From: Escherichia phage adrianh | Reading direction: 5' to 3' (one strand) | DNA: 64,000 bases | Sequence record: MN850614.1 | Shown here: in pieces, positions 7,770 to 21,014 of the stretch | Layout of the letters: the number at the start of each line of letters is the position of its first letter | Numbering within the stretch: the stretch's first letter is position 1 | Notes under the pieces: model-generated | What the model saw: the letters and a program-made list of their open reading frames with translations, nothing else | Told to the model about the DNA's origin: nothing | Database searches by the model: none | Position numbers and translations under genes: made by a program

Positions 7770-9551
7770 ATGACTAAATCACTTTATGCAGTACCAGCAG
7801 GTTTAAACGCAGATGCTTACAAATCTGGTCATGTTTACCAGTACCCTAGTGCAACAGATTACTTGATGTTTAACCTGACACCACGTAGTGATAAATGGTT
7901 TAACAGCCCTTTAGCAATTGATGGTGTAGTGGCTTTTGGTATTCAACGTTTTGTTAAAGATTACTTAATAGACCACTGGAACGCCACCTTCTTTGAACGT
8001 GACAAAAAAGAAGCAATTGATGAAATCTTAGAAGTCATGAACGGTGTTCTGGGTAAAGATGCTATTGGTCGAGAACATTGGGAAGCACTTCACGACTTAG
8101 GTTATCTACCAGTTGAAGTATACGCTGTAGAAGAAGGTACAGTTGTCCCTATGCGTGTTCCAATGATTGTATTCCAGAACACTGTTTCAGGTTTCCATTG
8201 GGTAGCGGGATATCTGGAAGATGCTTTCTCTGCTGAGATTTGGAAGGCTTGTACCATTGCAACTATTGCATTGCACTACAAACGTATCTGTAAGAAGTGG
8301 TCTGACCTTACTTGTGACAACGACTTGCATTTACCTTATCAGTGCCATGACTTTGCTATGCGTGGTATGTCCGGCTTTACCGATGACGCATTTAACGCTG
8401 TAGGTCACTTAACCAGCTTTAAAGGGACTGATAGCTTCCCTGCTGTGTATACAGCTAAACGCATCTATGGGCAGTCCTATCCAATTTCCGATATTGGTGG
8501 TTCTGTACCAGCCACTGAACACTCTGTCATGTGTGCAAACATTGCTTGGGAAGGTGGGAATGAGTTAATTGAAGAAGAAAGACGCTTTAAAGGTGAGTTA
8601 CAAACCTTCCGTCGTTTCTTAACAGAAACTTACCCAACTGGTATTGTAAGTATTGTTTCAGACACTTATAATTTCTGGAGAACTGTATCAGTGATACTCC
8701 CAGAACTCCGTAAAGAGATTATGGAACGTGATGGCAAACTGGTAATTCGTCCTGACTCTGGCGACCCTGTACATATTGTCACAGGTTATAAAGCAATCCA
8801 CTTAGAGTGTGCTAAAAAGGCTTATTACGAACACCTAAGCAAGCTTGAAGCCAGCGACACAATGTTGAATACTGTTCTGAACATGAAGCTTGAAAACATC
8901 AACTACGGCATTGCTGGGTGGCTACTGTCAGAAGGTTACGAAATGGTTGTTGACAGAGAAGACTTTGAAGTTGCTGATACAGTGATGTTGAAAAATGCTT
9001 ATATGGTTGGTTCTGCAAACGTTGTAACACGTCCTGTAGCAGAGATTGATGGAGCTATCAAGACACTGTATAACATCTTTGGGGGAACTATCAACTCTAA
9101 AGGTTTTAAAGTACTGGATGAGCACATCGGACTTATTTATGGTGACTCTATCACGTTGGAACGTGCAAACGAAATCTTGAAGCGTTTGTATGAAATGGGT
9201 TTTGCAAGCTCTAACGTAGTGTTTGGTGTAGGCTCTTACACTTACCAGTACATGACTCGTGACACCTTTGCATTTGCTGTCAAAGCAACTCTTGCAAGCA
9301 TTGGTGGTAAAGAGATTATGCTTGCAAAAGACCCTAAAACAGATAGTGGTGTTAAGAAATCTGCCTTTGGTGGTGTAGCACCTATGTGGGATGGTGATAA
9401 GCTGAAAGCTGTAGATGGCTATGGATTCCAGAGTTTTGCAGATGTACTTGACCACCAAGCTTGTGCTTTACGTTTAGTCTTTAGCGACTCTGAGCAGTTC
9501 GGTTATACAACTCTTGGAGATATTCGAAATAATATTGACAAGCAGCTTTAA
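7770..9551 (+). CDS. Nicotinamide phosphoribosyltransferase family protein (NAMPT/NadV-like; candidate Namat)
   Basis: 593 aa; HDFAMRG, FKGTDS, SVPATEHS, IVSDTYN, IRPDSGDP and IYGDS blocks match NAMPT as recalled. Confidence 0.85.
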   Translation: MTKSLYAVPAGLNADAYKSGHVYQYPSATDYLMFNLTPRSDKWFNSPLAIDGVVAFGIQRFVKDYLIDHWNATFFERDKKEAIDEILEVMNGVLGKDAIGREHWEALHDLGYLPVEVYAVEEGTVVPMRVPMIVFQNTVSGFHWVAGYLEDAFSAEIWKACTIATIALHYKRICKKWSDLTCDNDLHLPYQCHDFAMRGMSGFTDDAFNAVGHLTSFKGTDSFPAVYTAKRIYGQSYPISDIGGSVPATEHSVMCANIAWEGGNELIEEERRFKGELQTFRRFLTETYPTGIVSIVSDTYNFWRTVSVILPELRKEIMERDGKLVIRPDSGDPVHIVTGYKAIHLECAKKAYYEHLSKLEASDTMLNTVLNMKLENINYGIAGWLLSEGYEMVVDREDFEVADTVMLKNAYMVGSANVVTRPVAEIDGAIKTLYNIFGGTINSKGFKVLDEHIGLIYGDSITLERANEILKRLYEMGFASSNVVFGVGSYTYQYMTRDTFAFAVKATLASIGGKEIMLAKDPKTDSGVKKSAFGGVAPMWDGDKLKAVDGYGFQSFADVLDHQACALRLVFSDSEQFGYTTLGDIRNNIDKQL

Positions 9552-9565
9552 AAGTATATGATAAG

Positions 9566-9588
9566 AGGCTCCTACGGGAGCCTTTTTA
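9566..9588 (+). terminator. Rho-independent terminator
   Basis: AGGCTCC / GGAGCCT stem then TTTTT. Confidence 0.6.
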
Positions 9589-9604
9589 ATTTCTGGAGAA
9601 TGCT

Positions 9605-9949
9605 ATGGACAACCTTTCCATATGGTTTAACAAGAAACCTGTACAACCGAAATACTTACAAGTTGCCTATACAGACATCCTTGAAGTTCTCGGTAAAGAA
9701 AAGTTTGAAAAGTTTTGTGAAGGCATCTACAATCATCACTGCCAATTTGCTACAAAAGAATGTATGTTTGTCATAGAACAGTTCTTTGGCAGAGACCCAG
9801 ATGACTACGAAGAGATTAGCTTTGTAATGAAATACATGATAGAGTATATTGAAAATCGTGGATTCGAAGTTAATCCTGAATTTTATGAGCACGAGGGTGT
9901 ACCTTTAGCAAAAGGTTTTGATGGAATACTTGTTAGCTGGACTTGGTGA
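9605..9949 (+). CDS. Hypothetical protein
   Basis: 114 aa ORF. Confidence 0.45.
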   Translation: MDNLSIWFNKKPVQPKYLQVAYTDILEVLGKEKFEKFCEGIYNHHCQFATKECMFVIEQFFGRDPDDYEEISFVMKYMIEYIENRGFEVNPEFYEHEGVPLAKGFDGILVSWTW

Positions 9950-10290
9950 AAATTATGAAAATCAAAGAAATGAACATCAATATTGTCTTAGAAGAACGCT
10001 GGGAGAACATCAAGAAGCCTGAAAATGGTCATAAGTTCCTCAACAAAATCTTAGTAGCAGCTAAAGAGGAACTGACTGGCAAGGTTGCAGCGGCAATCAC
10101 AATAAAGGTGTGTGTGAAAGGTCTTCCAGACAATCACCAATTTGCACTTGACGAGTTTAAAGAAAGCTTCTACAATCCAAACAAACAGATGCTTGAAAGT
10201 AACTTTGCAGTATCTACAAGTATCGTCCATGACAGAAGCTTTATCCTTTACAAGAATATGAGAGGTGAGTTATGCAAGCATATTGGATAG
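9943..10290 (+). CDS. Hypothetical protein
   Basis: 115 aa ORF. Confidence 0.45.
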   Translation: MVKIMKIKEMNINIVLEERWENIKKPENGHKFLNKILVAAKEELTGKVAAAITIKVCVKGLPDNHQFALDEFKESFYNPNKQMLESNFAVSTSIVHDRSFILYKNMRGELCKHIG

Positions 10291-10476: not shown

Positions 10477-12843
10477 ATGCGCATGGTAAATGACCACGCA
10501 GAAGTGATTAAGAGTTCAACTTCTTTAGAGACGTCTCAAGCACAGATTACAATGACACCCGAAATGTTCAGCCTTTTGAGTTCTGGTGTATACACCTTTA
10601 AAGAAAGGGCAGTTATTCGTGAACTGTCATGTAACGCAGTAGATGCTCAGAAAGAGGCTGGAAAAGAGAACATTCCGTTCCATGTGCATTTACCTACTCG
10701 TTTTGAGCCTTACTTTGAAGTTCGTGATTTTGGAACTGGATTGACTCATGATAAAGTTATGAGTTTGTATCTAAACTACGGGGCTTCTACGAAGAATGAC
10801 TCTAATGACTACATTGGTGCAATGGGTATCGGCTCAAAATCCCCATTTGCAATTGCTCAGTCATTCACAGTGTCCAGTTATGTTGATGGTGTTGTTAATA
10901 AGTACTCTGTTTATCTTGAGAATGGTATTCCTCAAGTAACTAAGCTGACCACCAACCCAACAAAAGAACCTAATGGTTTAGCTGTACGTGTAGCAGTTGC
11001 TGACCATCGTATCTCAAAGTTCTTTGAAGAGGCTGGTCACGTATACTCATACTTTGCTGTAAAACCGGAAAGTAATATCGAGTATGACGATGTATTGTCA
11101 GATATGAACGTCATTGCCCGTGAAGAAGGTGTTTATGATGCCATGATTCATAAGCAAAGCTGGCGTTCTAGTGGTAACAGGACAGAGTTTAATGTAGTGA
11201 TGGGTAACATTGCCTACCCTGTTAACATGGAAGCATTACTTGGTGATGATTTCTTCAAAGTCTTGCCAGAATTTTTCCGTAGGAGCGTAGACCTTGTAAA
11301 CATCTATATGCCTATTGGTTCAGTTGCTATTGCAGCTTCTCGTGAAGCATTGCAGATGAATGATACAACAAAAAATGTTATCATTGAGGCTACTAAAAAG
11401 ATAACTGAAGCAATTACAAAGGATGTTATCAAGAAAGTTAACAACCAACCTACACTCATGGATGCTGCACAGGCTTATGCTGAGTTACGTTTGAACTCAC
11501 GAGAGATGTTTAATGCTGTGTGTCCAAAGCTAGAGTGGGGAGGCATTAAGCTTGATTCTCTGGAAGAAGAATTACTAAACATTCGTCGTGGGATTATCTA
11601 CGCAGAAGACGGCTCAGTCATTTATGAACGTGACGGTAAAGGTAATATCAAGGTTGATAGGAACGGGAACAATATCCCTAAAGTGGATTATCTTTATAAT
11701 CCAGTTGCTTATGTCAAGTTCAACTCTTTAGAGAGTAAGATTCGTGCAACAGCACTTTCCTACACTCAAGAGGCAAGTATGTTCAATATCTTTGGTGCAA
11801 TGCGTAAAAGCCAAATTGAACAGTTTTTGTTCGTGATTAATGACCGTCGTAATAAAAATGGCACTGAGAAGACTGTAGGCCGCAATCAGATTCTGCGTGG
11901 TGCATGTCGAGACTACGCTAACGAGTCAAGCCTGTTCCACAGATACAATGGTATTGTGTTTGTATTCTCGACTGAAAAAGAGTTAGATGATTTAATCAAT
12001 CTACACAAGCTTGATAAAAGTTTGTTAAAGATTGTGAAGATGTCTGATAAGGAACACCATTATCAGCGTAAAGAAGCTGTGAGGGGTGTTGTAAAACTCT
12101 GGAAAGCTGTTCCATCAGAAACTAAAGCTTCATACACAGAGGTGTCAGAAGACCTAGATACAATTGAAGAACCCCAGCTTTATATCAAGGCAGTAGGCGA
12201 CACAGTTGATGGTGAATGTTTTTGCTCATCCCCAGAAGATGTAGCTAAAACAATTGCTAATGTTATAGGAAAAACAGTCTATGTTTTCCGAAAAGCAAAT
12301 TGGAAAAAGATACCAGAAGACTGGATTGAAGTAGATGAGAAGCTATTGAATGACAGCTTAACTGATGTTCACTGGATTAATCATAACAGGTATATGACAC
12401 GTATCTATATGAATGGTGTCCTTGACCTTACAAGTAGTTGGATTATTGCCAGAAACTTTACGTTTAATAACAAGAAGATTTCTCGCGGGTATTGCTATTC
12501 ACGAGATACAAACAAAACCATCTTCTTAGAAGGTAATGAGAATGCTGTTGAGGCAATGTTTGGTAAGATTCAGTATGTGGCTGCACCGTTTGCATACACT
12601 TACACTATCAGTGTTCTTCAGGATTTGAAGTCATGCCTTGACAATGATACAAAACTGTACAAAAAGATTAAGAAAGCGGGTGACCGCATGGTTATCAAAC
12701 TGACAAACTATCTTTCAAAAAGAAAACAAGAAAACTTCTTGCTTTCTCATTTAGATTGGAATAAAGTGTCACCCATCGAAGTGAGTAAGTTCTTAGGTTT
12801 TGATGTGAAGTGTGTTCCAGAAGGAACTACAATTTACGATTAA
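10477..12843 (+). CDS. rIIA: GHKL-ATPase protein, rIIA-like
   Basis: 788 aa; N-box ELSCNAVDA, G1 box DFGTGL, G2 box GAMGIGSKS; large size and position before rIIB-like gene. Confidence 0.55.
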   Translation: MRMVNDHAEVIKSSTSLETSQAQITMTPEMFSLLSSGVYTFKERAVIRELSCNAVDAQKEAGKENIPFHVHLPTRFEPYFEVRDFGTGLTHDKVMSLYLNYGASTKNDSNDYIGAMGIGSKSPFAIAQSFTVSSYVDGVVNKYSVYLENGIPQVTKLTTNPTKEPNGLAVRVAVADHRISKFFEEAGHVYSYFAVKPESNIEYDDVLSDMNVIAREEGVYDAMIHKQSWRSSGNRTEFNVVMGNIAYPVNMEALLGDDFFKVLPEFFRRSVDLVNIYMPIGSVAIAASREALQMNDTTKNVIIEATKKITEAITKDVIKKVNNQPTLMDAAQAYAELRLNSREMFNAVCPKLEWGGIKLDSLEEELLNIRRGIIYAEDGSVIYERDGKGNIKVDRNGNNIPKVDYLYNPVAYVKFNSLESKIRATALSYTQEASMFNIFGAMRKSQIEQFLFVINDRRNKNGTEKTVGRNQILRGACRDYANESSLFHRYNGIVFVFSTEKELDDLINLHKLDKSLLKIVKMSDKEHHYQRKEAVRGVVKLWKAVPSETKASYTEVSEDLDTIEEPQLYIKAVGDTVDGECFCSSPEDVAKTIANVIGKTVYVFRKANWKKIPEDWIEVDEKLLNDSLTDVHWINHNRYMTRIYMNGVLDLTSSWIIARNFTFNNKKISRGYCYSRDTNKTIFLEGNENAVEAMFGKIQYVAAPFAYTYTISVLQDLKSCLDNDTKLYKKIKKAGDRMVIKLTNYLSKRKQENFLLSHLDWNKVSPIEVSKFLGFDVKCVPEGTTIYD

Positions 12844-12848
12844 AGTGT

Positions 12849-12878
12849 TTGACAAGGGGCTTCGAAGCCCCTTAGAAT
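12849..12878 (+). promoter_or_regulatory. Sigma70-like promoter with hairpin in spacer
   Basis: TTGACA, 18 nt spacer containing AGGGGCTTCGAAGCCCCT hairpin, then TAGAAT. Confidence 0.45.
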
Positions 12879-12922
12879 AGCCTTACAAAATGATTTATTA
12901 ACTAACAAGAGAGAGTAATAAG

Positions 12923-14032
12923 ATGACTACTAAAACTAAAGCACAGATTGACGCAGAAATTTACGAACTGGTTAAAGAAGGTAAGCTGACTAAAACAGCT
13001 ATTGCACAGAAGTTCAATACTTCAACCCGTTCAGTTGGTCGTGCTGTAGAGCGTCATGAAGCAACCTTAAAAGGTAAGAAAAAGGTAGCTTCTAAACCAG
13101 CTACGAAGACTTTGAAGCAAGTTGCTAAATCAGTTAAAAAGAAAGCTGACAAACCAGTTGAAAAGGTTGTTAAAGAGCCTGTACAGAAAGCTCCGGTAAA
13201 TAAACTGCATGAAGCTATGCAGAATGGCAACCAGATTGAGTACATGATTACTGGCGACTCTGTTATCATGACTTTCGGTGCAGATTCTGAAATCGTTGAA
13301 TCTACCCATCCGAACTACAAAGAAATCGTGATGGCTGTTGTATCCGGTGAGTATAAGAAAGCTTTCGAACTGATGAACATTCGTAAGTCTATCGAAAACT
13401 TCACTCAGGGTGCTATCACCATCAAAGGTGACAAGTTATTCTATGGTGCTGTTGAGATGCGTTCTACTCTGGTTGACCGTATTCTTCACATGATGAAGAC
13501 TGGAGATAAGGGTTTTGAACGCCTTGTGATGTTCTTCGAAAAACTGATGGAAAACCCATCTAAAGACTCTGTAGAACAACTTTGGGGATTCGTATCTCAC
13601 CTTGATGTTGAAATTGATGAAGAAGGCTACATCATTGGTTGGAAGAAAGTCTCTACTCATGAAGGCAAGCTGGTTGACTCCCACACCTACAGAGTACCTA
13701 ATGATTTGGGTAACATTGTAGAAATGCCACGTTGGATGGTTGATAATAACCGTAACGTGACTTGCTCTCAGGGTCTTCACGTTGGTGCTTGGGATTATGT
13801 TCGTTGCTTCTCAGGTGATACAATCCTGAAGGTTCGTGTCCATCCACGAGATGTTGTATCTGTTCCAACTGATTACAACGATATGAAGATGCGTTCGTCT
13901 CGTTATGAAGTTGCAGCAATCGTTGATAATCAACGTAAAGTGCTGAAAGAATGGGATGGCAAGACTGAAGCTTTGCATGTCATCGTTGGCACTGCTGGTG
14001 AACTAATCTCCCAACGTAAACGTGAAATCTAA
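12923..14032 (+). CDS. rIIB: rIIB-like protein (by synteny)
   Basis: 369 aa, directly downstream of rIIA-like gene; Lys-rich linker; no diagnostic motif. Confidence 0.35.
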   Translation: MTTKTKAQIDAEIYELVKEGKLTKTAIAQKFNTSTRSVGRAVERHEATLKGKKKVASKPATKTLKQVAKSVKKKADKPVEKVVKEPVQKAPVNKLHEAMQNGNQIEYMITGDSVIMTFGADSEIVESTHPNYKEIVMAVVSGEYKKAFELMNIRKSIENFTQGAITIKGDKLFYGAVEMRSTLVDRILHMMKTGDKGFERLVMFFEKLMENPSKDSVEQLWGFVSHLDVEIDEEGYIIGWKKVSTHEGKLVDSHTYRVPNDLGNIVEMPRWMVDNNRNVTCSQGLHVGAWDYVRCFSGDTILKVRVHPRDVVSVPTDYNDMKMRSSRYEVAAIVDNQRKVLKEWDGKTEALHVIVGTAGELISQRKREI

Positions 14033-14047
14033 TAAGTAATTTCTTAA

Positions 14048-14072
14048 AAGGCTGCTTCGGCGGCCTTTTTTA
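14048..14072 (+). terminator. Rho-independent terminator (UUCG tetraloop)
   Basis: GGCTGC TTCG GCGGCC then TTTTTT. Confidence 0.6.
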
Positions 14073-14132
14073 TTTGTATTTTGTGCAGAGTGCTGTATAA
14101 TTGTTGTCACGATAAACTAAACAGGAGAACCA

Positions 14133-14681
14133 ATGAAGAAATTGATTCTAGGTTTGTGCTTAATGTTTACAGCACACTTATCTTATGCAGTTGACTGCCC
14201 AGAGCTATCAATTAGCCAAAAAGTAAACATGTTAAAAGCTTACCAGTATGGTGAGAATAACATGGGTAAAGGTTGGGGTATCACTCTAGCTGCTATAGCC
14301 TTACAAGAGTCAGAGTTAGGTCTGAAGGTAGAGAATAAAAAGACACATGATTATGGTATCTTCCAGAATCACTTGAAGACTGTTGTAAAGCGTAACAAAA
14401 TCAGTCCTAATGTGGCTAAAAAGAAACTCTTAAAAGACTTTGACTATGCTGCTAAGGAAACTCACAAAGAGCTTGAGTTTTGGACAAAGGTGCATGGTCA
14501 GCCAAAGTCAAAGAAGACTTTACAAAAAGTCTTAGCATCATATAATGCTGGGTATTCGTACAGAATCCCTAAAGCTAAGAAATATTCTCAAGATGTTTAT
14601 AACAATATGAAAGTAATTGCTCAATGTGAATTTGCAACAAACATTTCTAAGGTAAACCATGAAAAAATTAAGAAAGTCTGA
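14133..14681 (+). CDS. Secreted lytic transglycosylase (SLT domain)
   Basis: Signal-peptide-like N-terminus; SLT motifs LQESELG, GIFQ, SYNAGY. Confidence 0.55.
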   Translation: MKKLILGLCLMFTAHLSYAVDCPELSISQKVNMLKAYQYGENNMGKGWGITLAAIALQESELGLKVENKKTHDYGIFQNHLKTVVKRNKISPNVAKKKLLKDFDYAAKETHKELEFWTKVHGQPKSKKTLQKVLASYNAGYSYRIPKAKKYSQDVYNNMKVIAQCEFATNISKVNHEKIKKV

Positions 14682-15354
14682 TGAAGTATTGTGCCATGCT
14701 TATGACTTACATCCTCATGAGTTAGTTCTTGATTCCTGTGTATGGACTCCAGAACAGTGCAGGGATTTTGAAGACACCGCAAGAGAAGTTGTATGTTCAC
14801 TTGAAGAGTTCCACACATCAGAGCCAATTGTGAATGTTGTAGATAAAGAGACTGGACAAACTATAGGTGTAAGTCGTGATAGCTTAGTCATAGTCAATAA
14901 AGACCTTGTAGAAAAAGGTAACCTCATCTTAGCAGATATTGATGGTGTTCTTACAAATTTTAATCACGAAGATTGCTCAACGGAATTGACTGATGGGTCA
15001 TTCTCACAGTACACTAATCTTCTTGACTCTGTAAGAGCAAAACCAACGTATGTCTTTAGTATTATTGATGCAATTGCTAATCATGCTGCCATTGGACTCT
15101 TGACAGCGAGAGGTGAATCTCAGAGAATACCTACTGAGATGTTTTTAAGGCACAATATAGAGCATGATTACTTGCTTTTTATGCGTGGTTTTGGAACTAA
15201 CTCTATAAGTGCAGAAAGTTTGAAAGTGAGGATGATTCAGTCTTGCATTCTTCCTTACTTTAATATAGTATGTTTTATAGAAGATACAGAGAAGAATGTT
15301 CAGAAGGTAAACAGAATCCTTCCACACATTAAAACCATGTTAGTTAAACACTGA
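14659..15354 (+). CDS. HAD-like hydrolase (hypothetical)
   Basis: 231 aa; LILADIDGVLT resembles HAD motif I (DxDG[TV]). Confidence 0.4.
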   Translation: MKKLRKSDEVLCHAYDLHPHELVLDSCVWTPEQCRDFEDTAREVVCSLEEFHTSEPIVNVVDKETGQTIGVSRDSLVIVNKDLVEKGNLILADIDGVLTNFNHEDCSTELTDGSFSQYTNLLDSVRAKPTYVFSIIDAIANHAAIGLLTARGESQRIPTEMFLRHNIEHDYLLFMRGFGTNSISAESLKVRMIQSCILPYFNIVCFIEDTEKNVQKVNRILPHIKTMLVKH

Positions 15355-15363
15355 GAGAAACTT

Positions 15364-15828
15364 ATGAACAATATCATTACGGTAGCACTGGACGTTACAG
15401 CAAACAAATCTGAAGTAGTTCGTAACATTATCAAGAGCAACTTTGAAGGTAAAATCTTCCGTGCTGTCAATGTAAAAGCAGACGGTAACATCCGGGAGTA
15501 TCGTGCTCTTCTGAATGTTAAGAAACACGTAAAAGGTGCTGGTTCAACGACTGCACACAAAGAAAACCTGATGACTATCTATGATATGGGTATGGCTTCA
15601 GAGTTAGGTACTGAAGGTATCGTTAAAGAAGGTGCTCCGTATCGCTCTTTCAATCTGGAAACTGCTCTTATGCTTTCCTTTACAAGTGGTTCTAAAACAA
15701 CTACTTATCTCTTTACTGATGCTGCAACGGTATCTGCTATCAAGGATAGCACTGTCAAAGCTGGGGTAGCTGCTGCTGCAAAAGCTTCTTCGATGGCTGC
15801 AAATGTCCTTGCTAAAGTCCTCGGTTAA
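15364..15828 (+). CDS. Hypothetical protein
   Basis: 154 aa ORF, Ala-rich C-terminus. Confidence 0.45.
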   Translation: MNNIITVALDVTANKSEVVRNIIKSNFEGKIFRAVNVKADGNIREYRALLNVKKHVKGAGSTTAHKENLMTIYDMGMASELGTEGIVKEGAPYRSFNLETALMLSFTSGSKTTTYLFTDAATVSAIKDSTVKAGVAAAAKASSMAANVLAKVLG

Positions 15829-15839
15829 GGTTAAGATAC

Positions 15840-15862
15840 AGGCTCCTTCGGGAGCCTTTTTC
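15840..15862 (+). terminator. Rho-independent terminator (UUCG tetraloop)
   Basis: AGGCTCC TTCG GGAGCCT then TTTTT. Confidence 0.6.
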
Positions 15863-15880
15863 ATTTCAGGAGATTGTTAA

Positions 15881-16228
15881 ATGACATTTAAAGAGTTCTG
15901 TCAAGCTACTTTCATAATTGTTTTCTTAGTTGGGGCAGGTGTCTGGGGAGGATACTCTTACAGAGACTATCAAGTTGCTGAAGCTGAGCTAAATAATGAG
16001 AAACTAATAAGTGTTGCCAAAGATGCTTATCAGGAAGGTTTAGCCACACTGAGCACCAATTACAAAAATGATTTGAAAGATGTGCTTGCTAAGAATAAGC
16101 ATACAAAAGAGGTACTAACGTATGAAAAGACTAAGCCAGAGTTTTATAATGTTTGTGTTACTGATAATTATGTCAGGGTGTTCAACGAACAAAGTGAGCA
16201 GTACATTCAAAAACTCCCAAGTAAGTGA
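15881..16228 (+). CDS. i-spanin-like protein (N-terminal TM, coiled-coil)
   Basis: 115 aa; hydrophobic N-terminus then charged helical region; overlaps next lipoprotein ORF. Confidence 0.4.
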   Translation: MTFKEFCQATFIIVFLVGAGVWGGYSYRDYQVAEAELNNEKLISVAKDAYQEGLATLSTNYKNDLKDVLAKNKHTKEVLTYEKTKPEFYNVCVTDNYVRVFNEQSEQYIQKLPSK

Positions 16229-16391
16229 GAGTGATAAGTACACTCAAGAAGAATCACGGTATATCATCAAAGGCAACACAGGTAGTGATGTAGCAGCAGC
16301 ACTTGAGTTCTACCGTGACGGATTTTACCAGTGTACAATCAAAGCTAATAACCTTATTGACATGATTTTATTAGGGAATAAGCAGCAATGA
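16122..16391 (+). CDS. o-spanin-like lipoprotein
   Basis: 89 aa; signal peptide with lipobox-like IIMSGC; start embedded in upstream ORF in another frame. Confidence 0.4.
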   Translation: MKRLSQSFIMFVLLIIMSGCSTNKVSSTFKNSQVSESDKYTQEESRYIIKGNTGSDVAAALEFYRDGFYQCTIKANNLIDMILLGNKQQ

Positions 16392-16657
16392 CAGAGAACG
16401 AAGATACTTTCTATGTAGAAGGGTACTTACTGCTACCACGACCAAAAGAAACTTATATGCGGGTTGATTTCTCACCAACCATTATGGATAACGTGATGTG
16501 TCATATCTTTATGCAAGGTGTCACAGCACAACTTAAGCATGTTGGTAAAGAGTGCAAAATAAAGGTTGACACTCATCCAGAAATCAAAGAGAATCACTAC
16601 ACATGGTTCTTACCAGACTCTAAAGAAATCTTAGCAGTTCTTAAAACGAGGAAGTAG
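16388..16657 (+). CDS. Hypothetical protein
   Basis: 89 aa ORF. Confidence 0.4.
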   Translation: MTENEDTFYVEGYLLLPRPKETYMRVDFSPTIMDNVMCHIFMQGVTAQLKHVGKECKIKVDTHPEIKENHYTWFLPDSKEILAVLKTRK

Positions 16658-16659
16658 CT

Positions 16660-16986
16660 ATGCAGATTAATGGAAGAGACTTTGTAGCCGTTTACTATGA
16701 TAACGATAAAGAAGTTGGTGTAGCACAGGTAACCTATGGCAATGGTAAGTGGCTATATGGAACAATCGCAGTAGTAGGAACAAGAAGTGATACAAAAACT
16801 TTTAAAGATTGTGTTGACCTTCTTGAAGAATCCATCCACAATCATTGGTGTCTGATATGGATGACTGACAATGAAGTGATGGAACGTTTCAAAAAGATTG
16901 ATATCAACATAGACAGCATTGAGCATGTTGACTTGTATGAACTGACTGAGAAGGTAAATTATGAAAGTAATTCTAGCCAGAGATAA
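16660..16986 (+). CDS. Hypothetical protein
   Basis: 108 aa ORF. Confidence 0.4.
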   Translation: MQINGRDFVAVYYDNDKEVGVAQVTYGNGKWLYGTIAVVGTRSDTKTFKDCVDLLEESIHNHWCLIWMTDNEVMERFKKIDINIDSIEHVDLYELTEKVNYESNSSQR

Positions 16987-17188
16987 AAAGACACGGAAAA
17001 TTATCCGGTCAGCAGTATTTATTGGAAGAAATGAAGTGATTCCTTTTACAGCAAATGATGTGATAGTCTACAGGAAAAAATTAGCATTCAGTTATTGCTT
17101 ACGTGGCTTTATCTCCCAGCCATTAGAAGATTTTAAAAATCGTTGTGGTAAAGGCATCATCATTCAAGAGGCAATTATTCATGGCTGA
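16961..17188 (+). CDS. Hypothetical protein
   Basis: 75 aa ORF. Confidence 0.3.
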   Translation: MKVILARDKKTRKIIRSAVFIGRNEVIPFTANDVIVYRKKLAFSYCLRGFISQPLEDFKNRCGKGIIIQEAIIHG

Positions 17189-20391: not shown

Positions 20392-20688
20392 ATGAAATTA
20401 TCGAATAAAGTTCGTGAAAATCTGAGCAAATTACTCAACAAAATTGATTTCATTGAAACATCAAGAAATAGTCATGATGTTATGGAATGGTTACACGGCA
20501 AAATAAAAGGCCGTCGTGTAGTGATTTGTTTATGGAATAGTTGCAGGGAGTATAAAAAACCTGTATTGCAAGTAAATATTTATGATGATACTTTTAAAAG
20601 TCCTGTAAAGTCTAAAAGTGATTTATTAGAATCCTATGAGATAACTTTAAATGGCAAAGTATCACGTAAAGAGGAAACACCATGTTAA
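20392..20688 (+). CDS. Hypothetical protein
   Basis: 98 aa ORF. Confidence 0.45.
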   Translation: MKLSNKVRENLSKLLNKIDFIETSRNSHDVMEWLHGKIKGRRVVICLWNSCREYKKPVLQVNIYDDTFKSPVKSKSDLLESYEITLNGKVSRKEETPC

Positions 20689-21014
20689 TGACTGGTATCA
20701 CTGCAATCATTGCCATTTTCGCGCTATATAAGGCATATAAAGCCTATAATCTAGCAAATAAGGCAATCACACAGCAGGTTAGCAATAACCTTGTAGAAAG
20801 CTTTCTAGGGCGCCTCAGTGATGAGCAAATAAAGCGGCTAGAGATGAGCTTCAGATATAAAGCGAAAACCTATCAGATAAGTGACATCTTCAAAGATGAT
20901 TTTCAGTTAGTGGATGATTATAACTCTCTGATAAATGCTTTAAATATTAGTGACTTAAAAGACTATTACGCTGTAATTGTCCAAGAATTGAACAAACGAA
21001 AAAATTCCTCTTGA
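20682..21014 (+). CDS. Hypothetical membrane protein
   Basis: 110 aa, hydrophobic N-terminal segment. Confidence 0.45.
   Translation: MLMTGITAIIAIFALYKAYKAYNLANKAITQQVSNNLVESFLGRLSDEQIKRLEMSFRYKAKTYQISDIFKDDFQLVDDYNSLINALNISDLKDYYAVIVQELNKRKNSS

Follow-up and report, generated by a model that had tools for sequence, protein, structure and literature searches.

A Vs.1-family peptidoglycan glycosidase, probably exported, encoded beside the rII genes of Escherichia phage adrianh

Signal-peptide and signal-arrest-release (SAR) endolysins, such as Lys44 of fOg44, Lyz of P1 and R of phage 21, are principal endolysins that are exported by the Sec pathway independently of the holin; SAR domains are long, weakly hydrophobic and uncleaved. 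Phage T4 encodes a small protein, Vs.1 (ORF 61.4, UniProt P13311), that is catalogued as an 'uncharacterized 20.7 kDa protein in vs-regB intergenic region'. Its SLT resemblance was pointed out in 2006, with reference to earlier PSI-BLAST results; the gene has been classed as 'early RNA, middle protein' and the protein has been detected in infection. Here we describe a full-length homologue of Vs.1 in Escherichia phage adrianh (sequence record MN850614.1). The gene lies at 14133–14681 on the plus strand of a stretch of 64,000 nucleotides, which we call the window, and we refer to it as gp3, after its equivalent in Salmonella phage Felix O1. We favour the reading that gp3 is a dispensable, exported, pre-lysis murein glycosidase, the Felix O1 gp3 of the Vs.1 family, with a probability of roughly 0.6. 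The gene comprises the following features.

14123–14127, plus strand: Shine–Dalgarno sequence AGGAG, 5 nt 5′ of the ATG and kept in Felix O1, Michonne (Mooglevirus) and mistaenkt (Suspvirus).
14133–14189, plus strand: predicted Sec signal peptide, residues 1–19 (MKK / LILGLCLMFTAHL / SYA), with a predicted cut before V20 according to the n/h/c-region test described below.
14190–14678, plus strand: predicted mature GH23 (SLT / goose-lysozyme-like) catalytic domain, residues 20–182, containing E59, D73, Q78, Y137-N138-A-G140, Y151 and Cys22/Cys165.
14679–14681, plus strand: stop codon.

The open reading frame (ORF) of gp3 has 182 codons, starts with ATG and specifies 182 amino acids. All of the motifs that a sequence-only reading had noticed are found in it: E59-S60 at nucleotides 14307–14312 (the catalytic E59 at 14307–14309), G75-I-F-Q78 at 14355–14366 and S136-Y-N-A-G-Y141 at 14538–14555, with Y151 as a fourth conserved motif residue. 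Their conservation in the family alignment rules out a chance match. The protein differs at one residue from Felix O1 ORF3/gp3 and is 100% identical to the copy in Salmonella phage FSL SP-010. A 3-kb stretch around the gene has 98% identity to Escherichia phage humlepung and matches 276 phage records, mostly Felixounavirus, and the window is Felixounavirus. Across three Ounavirinae genera, the ratio of nonsynonymous to synonymous substitution rates (dN/dS) of gp3 orthologues is 0.02–0.13, dS to a fourth genus, Kolesnikvirus, being saturated; the gp3 family is under purifying selection.

Several results identify gp3 as the Felix O1 counterpart of T4 Vs.1, in a family that was already catalogued. 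First, BLASTP aligns the two proteins over their full length (E = 2e-16, 32% identity, 174 columns). Second, gp3 matches the PHROG 600 profile at E = 1e-57, with residues 1–170 covering profile positions 1–176 of 178, and T4 vs.1 is assigned to phrog_600 in the annotation table of CRISPRi-ART, a transcriptome-wide knockdown study. Third, the Tequatrovirus match sits between regB and vs, and its sequence is that of T4 ORF 61.4, that is, vs.1; the RefSeq note on Felix O1 ORF3 reads 'hypothetical 20.7 KD protein in vs-regB intergenic region'. NCBIfam holds no model for gp3 or for T4 Vs.1. We regard it as very likely that the molecular identity of gp3 is that of a single-domain GH23 peptidoglycan glycosidase of the Vs.1 family.

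The family is widespread. By tblastn, 2,127 of 50,697 phage records contain homologues, among them Tequatrovirus and other T4-like phages, Vi1-like Ackermannviridae, Ounavirinae and jumbo phages, as well as myophages of Aeromonas, Vibrio, Acinetobacter and Klebsiella. The sequence-only reading had called a periplasm-targeted enzyme separate from a cytoplasmic lysozyme unusual. That view does not hold, since homologues in so many phage records, T4 included, make an exported SLT-like protein accompanied by a cytoplasmic endolysin a common arrangement. In a profile search of 1.84 billion representative proteins, 1,251 clusters (defined at 50% identity) were reached at E ≤ 1e-3 and 603 at E ≤ 1e-10, and the 150 best relatives are mostly 160–200 amino acids long and match from profile position 1. 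Two distant members that were looked up are both in phage contexts, the first on an Ounavirinae-like metagenomic contig with rIIB, the family member and polynucleotide kinase in the same order as in the window. The second, named as an SLT-domain protein of Campylobacter coli (6001–6582), lies about 1.4 kb from a Chimallin_Phikzvirus Pfam match (8019–9953) on a contig of 214 kb; this contig probably represents a nucleus-forming jumbo phage that is contained in a bacterial assembly.

Database names for these proteins are inconsistent. GenBank entries call gp3 'hypothetical protein', 'putative lysin', 'lysin', 'transglycosylase SLT domain-containing protein' or, wrongly, 'endoribonuclease'. Many Vs.1-family entries, such as mistaenkt_28 and Marshall_110, are mislabelled 'RegB endoribonuclease' or 'endoribonuclease'; the true regB of T4 is the adjoining gene. 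The mislabel seems to have spread through similarity-based annotation, and an older Pfam assignment, 'T4 RegB endoribonuclease family (CL0037)', has been quoted for the Vi01-like phage PhiSH19.

Both the family profile and the fold prediction bear out the SLT/GH23-type enzyme that the motifs had suggested. An AlphaFold2 model from a 16-sequence alignment has a mean predicted local distance difference test score (pLDDT) of 84.9; confidence is poor only for the signal peptide and for ~15 residues at the C-terminus. Most of residues 1–19 (1–3, 6–8 and 10–19) have a pLDDT below 50, as is expected of a detached signal peptide. The modelled protein has a lysozyme-like α-helical fold that can be superposed on GH23 enzymes; Foldseek is in agreement, with lower scores, and the BFVD matches, at TM scores of 0.70–0.74, are small proteins of other phages with an SLT domain. 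A single-sequence search of PDB sequences with gp3 gave no match; EtgA and g-type lysozymes were matched only with the family profile, whose best PDB match is EtgA (8urn) at E = 2.8e-4. Residues E59, D73, Q78, Y137-N138-G140 and Y151 of gp3 align with E42, D60, Q65, Y116-N117-G119 and Y133 of EtgA, positions that the 2024 EscI–EtgA paper describes as active-site residues.

Conservation is concentrated at these positions. In the family alignment of 153 sequences, to which all residue counts given here refer, E59, Y137, G140 and Y151 are each present in every sequence (153/153), followed by G63 (150), S60 (147), G75 (145) and N138 (145); position 78 is Gln in 92 sequences and His in 54. Outside the canonical SLT core, Gln29 (14217–14219), in an N-terminal helix ahead of that core, is present in 150 sequences and is specific to the family. 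Position 73 varies more widely, with Ser in 83 sequences, Asp in 52 and Ala in 13. D73 of gp3 aligns with EtgA D60 and hen lysozyme D52, and by this alignment the Felix O1 clade keeps the Asp that separates muramidases from Slt70-type transglycosylases, where T4 Vs.1 has Ala. For EtgA itself, the choice between hydrolytic and transglycosylase chemistry was left undecided in the 2024 paper. 'GH23 peptidoglycan glycosidase' is a safer name for gp3 than 'lytic transglycosylase', because 1,6-anhydro-N-acetylmuramic acid (1,6-anhydroMurNAc) ends cannot be read from a sequence.

The signal-peptide-like N-terminus seen in the sequence-only reading is corroborated by a heuristic of our own, the n/h/c-region test, which asks for a positive n-region, an uncharged h-region of 7–15 residues and small residues at −3 and −1. 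The gp3 N-terminus consists of MKK, LILGLCLMFTAHL and SYA followed by VD: two Lys precede an uncharged hydrophobic core of 13 residues, the residues at −3 and −1 are small, and the mean Kyte–Doolittle hydropathy of LILGLCLMFTAHL is 2.58 over its best 10-residue stretch. It passes with a single candidate site, between SYA and VD. The test is passed by 142 of 165 family members and by only 2 of the 84 ORFs in the window, gp3 and the membrane-anchored i-spanin. Further, Cys22 and Cys165 tend to occur together, with both present in 75 sequences, neither in 69 and only 9 discordant; such co-occurrence is what a disulfide would produce, and hence a protein that folds outside the cytoplasm. The protein is thus probably exported to the periplasm.

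Two other forms of envelope targeting were considered and rejected. A lipoprotein processed by signal peptidase II would need a lipobox, [LVI][ASTVI][GAS]C, towards the end of the h-region, and none is present: Cys9 is preceded by L-G-L, with Leu at −1, and by only 8 residues in all. Cys9 is also missing from T4 Vs.1 and most relatives. A SAR endolysin, taken here as a main endolysin with an uncleaved, weakly hydrophobic, Gly/Ala/Ser-rich N-terminal domain of ~18–20 amino acids or more, does not fit either: the core of gp3, with its 13 residues and many Leu, Ile and Phe, is too short for such a domain as well as too hydrophobic, a predicted cut site follows it, and the main endolysin is a separate GH24 protein.

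The position of gp3 points to an early, terminator-bounded transcription unit. The local gene order is rIIA (10477–12843), rIIB (12923–14032), gp3, polynucleotide kinase, a 154-amino-acid ORF and the i-spanin/o-spanin pair, with these features around gp3.

14046–14069, plus strand: intrinsic terminator after rIIB, with a 10-bp GC-rich stem and a T run; hairpin and T-tract are kept in Felix O1, Michonne and mistaenkt.
14074–14101, plus strand: candidate sigma-70-like promoter TTGTAT-16-TATAAT, from manual reading and conservation, with TATAAT at 14096–14101.
14659–15354, plus strand: polynucleotide kinase (PseT-like; PHROG 3970, 1.8e-133), whose start overlaps the 3′ end of gp3 by 23 nt.
15364–15828, plus strand: conserved 154-amino-acid protein, the last of the gp3–kinase unit (PHROG 2267; no Pfam match), with an Ala-rich C-terminus.
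15840–15857, plus strand: intrinsic terminator that closes the unit of gp3, kinase and 154-amino-acid ORF, before the spanins.
15881–16391, plus strand: i-spanin (15881–16228) and o-spanin (16122–16391), the latter starting within the i-spanin gene and running past its end; both lie outside the gp3 unit.

The Michonne record annotates terminators at both equivalent places, after rIIB and at the end of the unit. The perfect TATAAT is kept in three genera (Felixounavirus, Mooglevirus and Suspvirus), and Michonne has TTGAAA-16-TATAAT at the same place. The kinase gene lies directly downstream of gp3 in Felixounavirus, Mooglevirus, Suspvirus and Kolesnikvirus, a metagenomic relative having one HNH gene between the two, and an ORF of the same size as the 154-amino-acid ORF occupies its position in all four Ounavirinae genera examined. 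The neighbouring rIIA/B, polynucleotide kinase, NAMPT and macro-domain phosphatase genes are early-type functions. We conclude that gp3 is expressed and constrained; its early timing in this phage we infer.

A few further observations concern this region. A second sigma-70-like sequence, TTTACA-16-TATAAT, matches at 11 of 12 positions and lies inside the 3′ end of gp3 (14519–14546, plus strand), ~110 nt before the kinase start at 14659; if active, it could give the kinase a transcript of its own. The early block at 10477–17000 shares several genes with T4 in a different order, namely rIIA, rIIB, vs.1, pseT (the kinase), spanins next to pseT and a tk.4-like phosphatase (named in the Felix O1 ORF13 note). 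Start codons of the o-spanin differ between records, giving products of 65–89 amino acids.

Three results define what gp3 is not: it is neither the main lysis enzyme nor a part of the virion. The first is the endolysin.

31391–31855, minus strand: cytoplasmic GH24 (T4 e-type) endolysin (Pfam Phage_lysozyme 4.7e-40; PHROG endolysin 2.3e-55), without a hydrophobic N-terminus.

The separate e-type lysozyme named in the sequence-only reading is therefore a real GH24 endolysin. In T4, mutations in e prevent lysis even in the presence of vs.1, so the Vs.1 family cannot lyse cells alone. The second is fitness. In CRISPRi-ART, knockdown of the orthologue in the Ounavirinae phage SUSP1 (AVU07_agp083) was scored 'Not Fit' (mean 1.02, p 0.28) and knockdown of T4 vs.1 'Semi-Fit' (0.81, p 0.099); these scores, together with the GH24 endolysin, show that gp3 is not the main lysin. 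The third is the composition of the virion. The Felix O1 virion proteome comprises gp23, 36, 49, 53–55, 57–59, 63, 64, 67–69, 73, 74 and 77, without gp3. In its text, the report on VpaE1 gives the Felix O1 set with only three additions, gp54, gp58 and gp68, and the text of the Bas63 cryo-EM paper describes hub proteins without mention of a lysozyme or transglycosylase domain.

Two side observations on lysis genes may be added. No holin was identified in the window, and the 2010 Felix O1 paper gave candidates only. Strongly hydrophobic N-terminal segments are present in the conserved ORFs at 20682–21014 (plus strand, PHROG 4375) and 39129–39686 (plus strand, PHROG 2143).

Taken together, these data are best accommodated by an enzyme that acts on the wall before lysis. 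In this proposal, a host-type promoter in the rII early region would drive gp3 and the polynucleotide kinase gene together, and Sec would export the gp3 precursor, which would then be cleaved behind Ala19. The mature single-domain enzyme of ~160 residues, with an SLT / goose-lysozyme / EtgA-like fold, would fold in the periplasm, with a Cys22–Cys165 disulfide in the Felix O1 clade. There it would use Glu59 as general acid to cleave bonds between MurNAc and N-acetylglucosamine in the glycan strands, minutes before the holin-released GH24 endolysin and independently of it. Its role would be an accessory one, to remodel the wall or to weaken it in advance. Of the three roles offered in the sequence-only reading, an exported early-acting murein hydrolase, a virion-associated entry enzyme and a lysis-timing factor, the first fits best, given the terminator-bounded unit with the kinase in the rII region and the early T4 vs.1 RNA. 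We hold the accessory, pre-lysis wall-remodelling role more tentatively than the molecular identity, at somewhat under even odds, and the cutting could serve pre-weakening for faster or more complete lysis, wall remodelling in infection or a role in conflict.

Several points weigh against this proposal. The automatic promoter scan called no promoter directly upstream of gp3; the candidate has a weak −35 and went unlisted because that element matches at only 3 of 6 positions. In Pfam, gp3 alone scores 19.2 bits against SLT (PF01464), below the cut-off of 21.3, so the GH23/SLT assignment rests on the family profile and the predicted fold; T4 Vs.1 scores 25.1 bits, above the cut-off, and 15 of 16 homologues match, the best at E = 8.2e-12. 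D73 suggests that hydrolytic rather than transglycosylase chemistry is possible in the Felix O1 clade. From sequence and its context we infer that gp3 is exported, loses its signal peptide, forms the disulfide, is enzymatically active and is expressed early in this phage, and this holds most of all for its physiological purpose. The knockdown scores, being borderline, are uninformative on the purpose of the enzyme. Finally, a murein glycosidase that is active and freely soluble in the periplasm from an early stage might be expected to lyse the cell too soon. When overproduced, the periplasmic domains of the lytic transglycosylases MltA and MltB make E. coli cells lyse transiently and become round, and for this reason the activity of gp3 must be low, exolytic or somehow restrained. 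A toxicity screen of phiR1-RT genes is of no help here, its Vs.1 homologue g114 being absent from the supplement examined.

In a first alternative, gp3 is a second endolysin of the signal-peptide type, exported early, quiescent in the energised envelope and active when the holin fires, so that it sets the efficiency or timing of lysis. Kayvirus Tgl has been interpreted in exactly this way, Nolan et al. proposed 'some role in cell lysis' for vs.1, several GenBank records say 'lysin', T4 vs.1 is 'Semi-Fit' and gp3 lies only ~1.2 kb upstream of the spanin genes. The last point loses force on inspection of the locus: a terminator splits gp3 from the spanins and the gene is co-transcribed with the kinase. 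Proximity to the spanins seems due to the pseT–spanin linkage, which T4 has as well, and the vs.1 gene is elsewhere in T4 and in Vi1-like phages. The SUSP1 orthologue is 'Not Fit', and no mechanism that would inactivate a soluble periplasmic enzyme is visible in the sequence. The failure of T4 e mutants to lyse in spite of vs.1 counts against this alternative as well, and we consider it doubtful.

A broader proposal takes the Vs.1 family as widespread early periplasm-targeted effectors that re-engineer the sacculus conditionally, perhaps to exclude or disarm superinfecting phages, to sustain enlarged cells while lysis is delayed or to evade an envelope-linked defence, and not as lysis accessories. 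It would explain strong purifying selection in more than 2,000 virulent phage genomes despite near-neutral knockdown in laboratory hosts, and we think it distinctly unlikely. A related and still less probable alternative is that gp3 itself is a periplasmic enzyme for phage–phage or phage–host conflict, which might, for example, alter the wall to hinder superinfecting phages, help cells to enlarge in delayed lysis, release muropeptide signals or counter an envelope-based defence. Early expression and the adjoining rIIA/rIIB genes, which counter Rex exclusion, are consistent with this, as is retention in many virulent lineages with little or no fitness effect in defence-poor laboratory hosts, a pattern typical of conditionally useful genes. 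Further, vs.1 is one of five T4 genes that CRISPRi-ART scored as 'Semi-Fit' and whose function is purely unknown, and its authors count vs.1 among unknowns that may lead to new biology. The case is nonetheless purely circumstantial: the sequence suggests no target or partner, the rII linkage is not kept in T4 or Vi1-like phages, and the conserved catalytic machinery indicates only the cutting of peptidoglycan or a related glycan.

An enzyme carried in the virion for local digestion of the wall at DNA injection, like T4 gp5 or T7 gp16, is very improbable. A cleavable Sec signal would take the protein away from the cytoplasm, where virions are assembled; the gene lies in an early, non-structural block, and the product is a small single domain without an attachment module. 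The virion lists (Felix O1, and the additions given in the VpaE1 text) and the Bas63 text, which describes no hub transglycosylase, contradict this second role of the sequence-only reading. Least credible of all is a catalytically inactive or non-exported relic with a residual motif match, to which the subthreshold Pfam score and the 'Not Fit' SUSP1 orthologue might point, in the face of a catalytic Glu and three other active-site residues at 153/153, dN/dS of 0.02–0.13, 1,251 clusters at 50% identity and a T4 Vs.1 protein detected during infection.

The gene is thus ordinary and already known, and the remaining interest lies in the physiological role of early periplasmic wall cutting. The practical value of the analysis is mainly in annotation, for which we propose 'Vs.1-family exported GH23 peptidoglycan glycosidase' in place of 'lysin', 'endolysin' or 'RegB endoribonuclease'. 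Among the uncharacterised genes of large virulent phages that infect Gram-negative bacteria, the Vs.1 family is one of the more widely distributed, with members in T4-like, Vi1-like and Felix O1-like phages and in some jumbo phages. It might also supply a muralytic enzyme that is small, naturally secreted and interesting for applications.

Among described systems, the closest functional precedent is Tgl of the Kayviruses (Staphylococcus phage K group), a host-secreted enzyme that has a signal peptide and the motifs of lytic transglycosylases and is encoded apart from the major late endolysin; its early-type promoter is usable by host RNA polymerase. Unlike gp3, Tgl belongs to phages of a Gram-positive host and has been characterized by zymogram and by its toxicity with the signal peptide; the likeness is conceptual, with no sequence relationship claimed. 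The signal-peptide and SAR endolysins share Sec export without a holin; gp3 differs from them in its 13-residue core with predicted cleavage, in the separate canonical endolysin and in the tolerated knockdown of its orthologue.

By profile search, the nearest solved relative is EtgA of the type III secretion system of enteropathogenic E. coli, whose relatives are IagB, IpgF and YsaH and which has ~20% identity to gp3. The gene for EtgA belongs to a secretion-system locus, and the inner-rod protein EscI both targets and activates the enzyme, whereas gp3 has no such partner or locus. Assignment of gp3 to the specialised secretion-system transglycosylases (EtgA/IagB/IpgF/VirB1) was rejected: it is a virulent phage gene between rIIB and polynucleotide kinase, and the relatives examined are in phage contigs. 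The family-1 enzymes of E. coli (Slt70, MltC, MltE and MltF) carry extra domains or lipid anchors, whereas gp3 has its family-specific N-terminal helix; Slt70 has Ala at the position equivalent to lysozyme D52, where gp3 has Asp.

T4 Vs.1 itself differs from gp3 in the Ala at the D73 position, in lacking the Cys22/Cys165 pair and in its neighbours, regB and vs in place of rIIB and polynucleotide kinase. In other respects the two are alike: they have 181 and 182 amino acids, respectively, a signal-like N-terminus and the motifs E-S, G-x-F-Q, S-Y-N-x-G and Y, and both are encoded in early regions, each apart from a GH24 endolysin.

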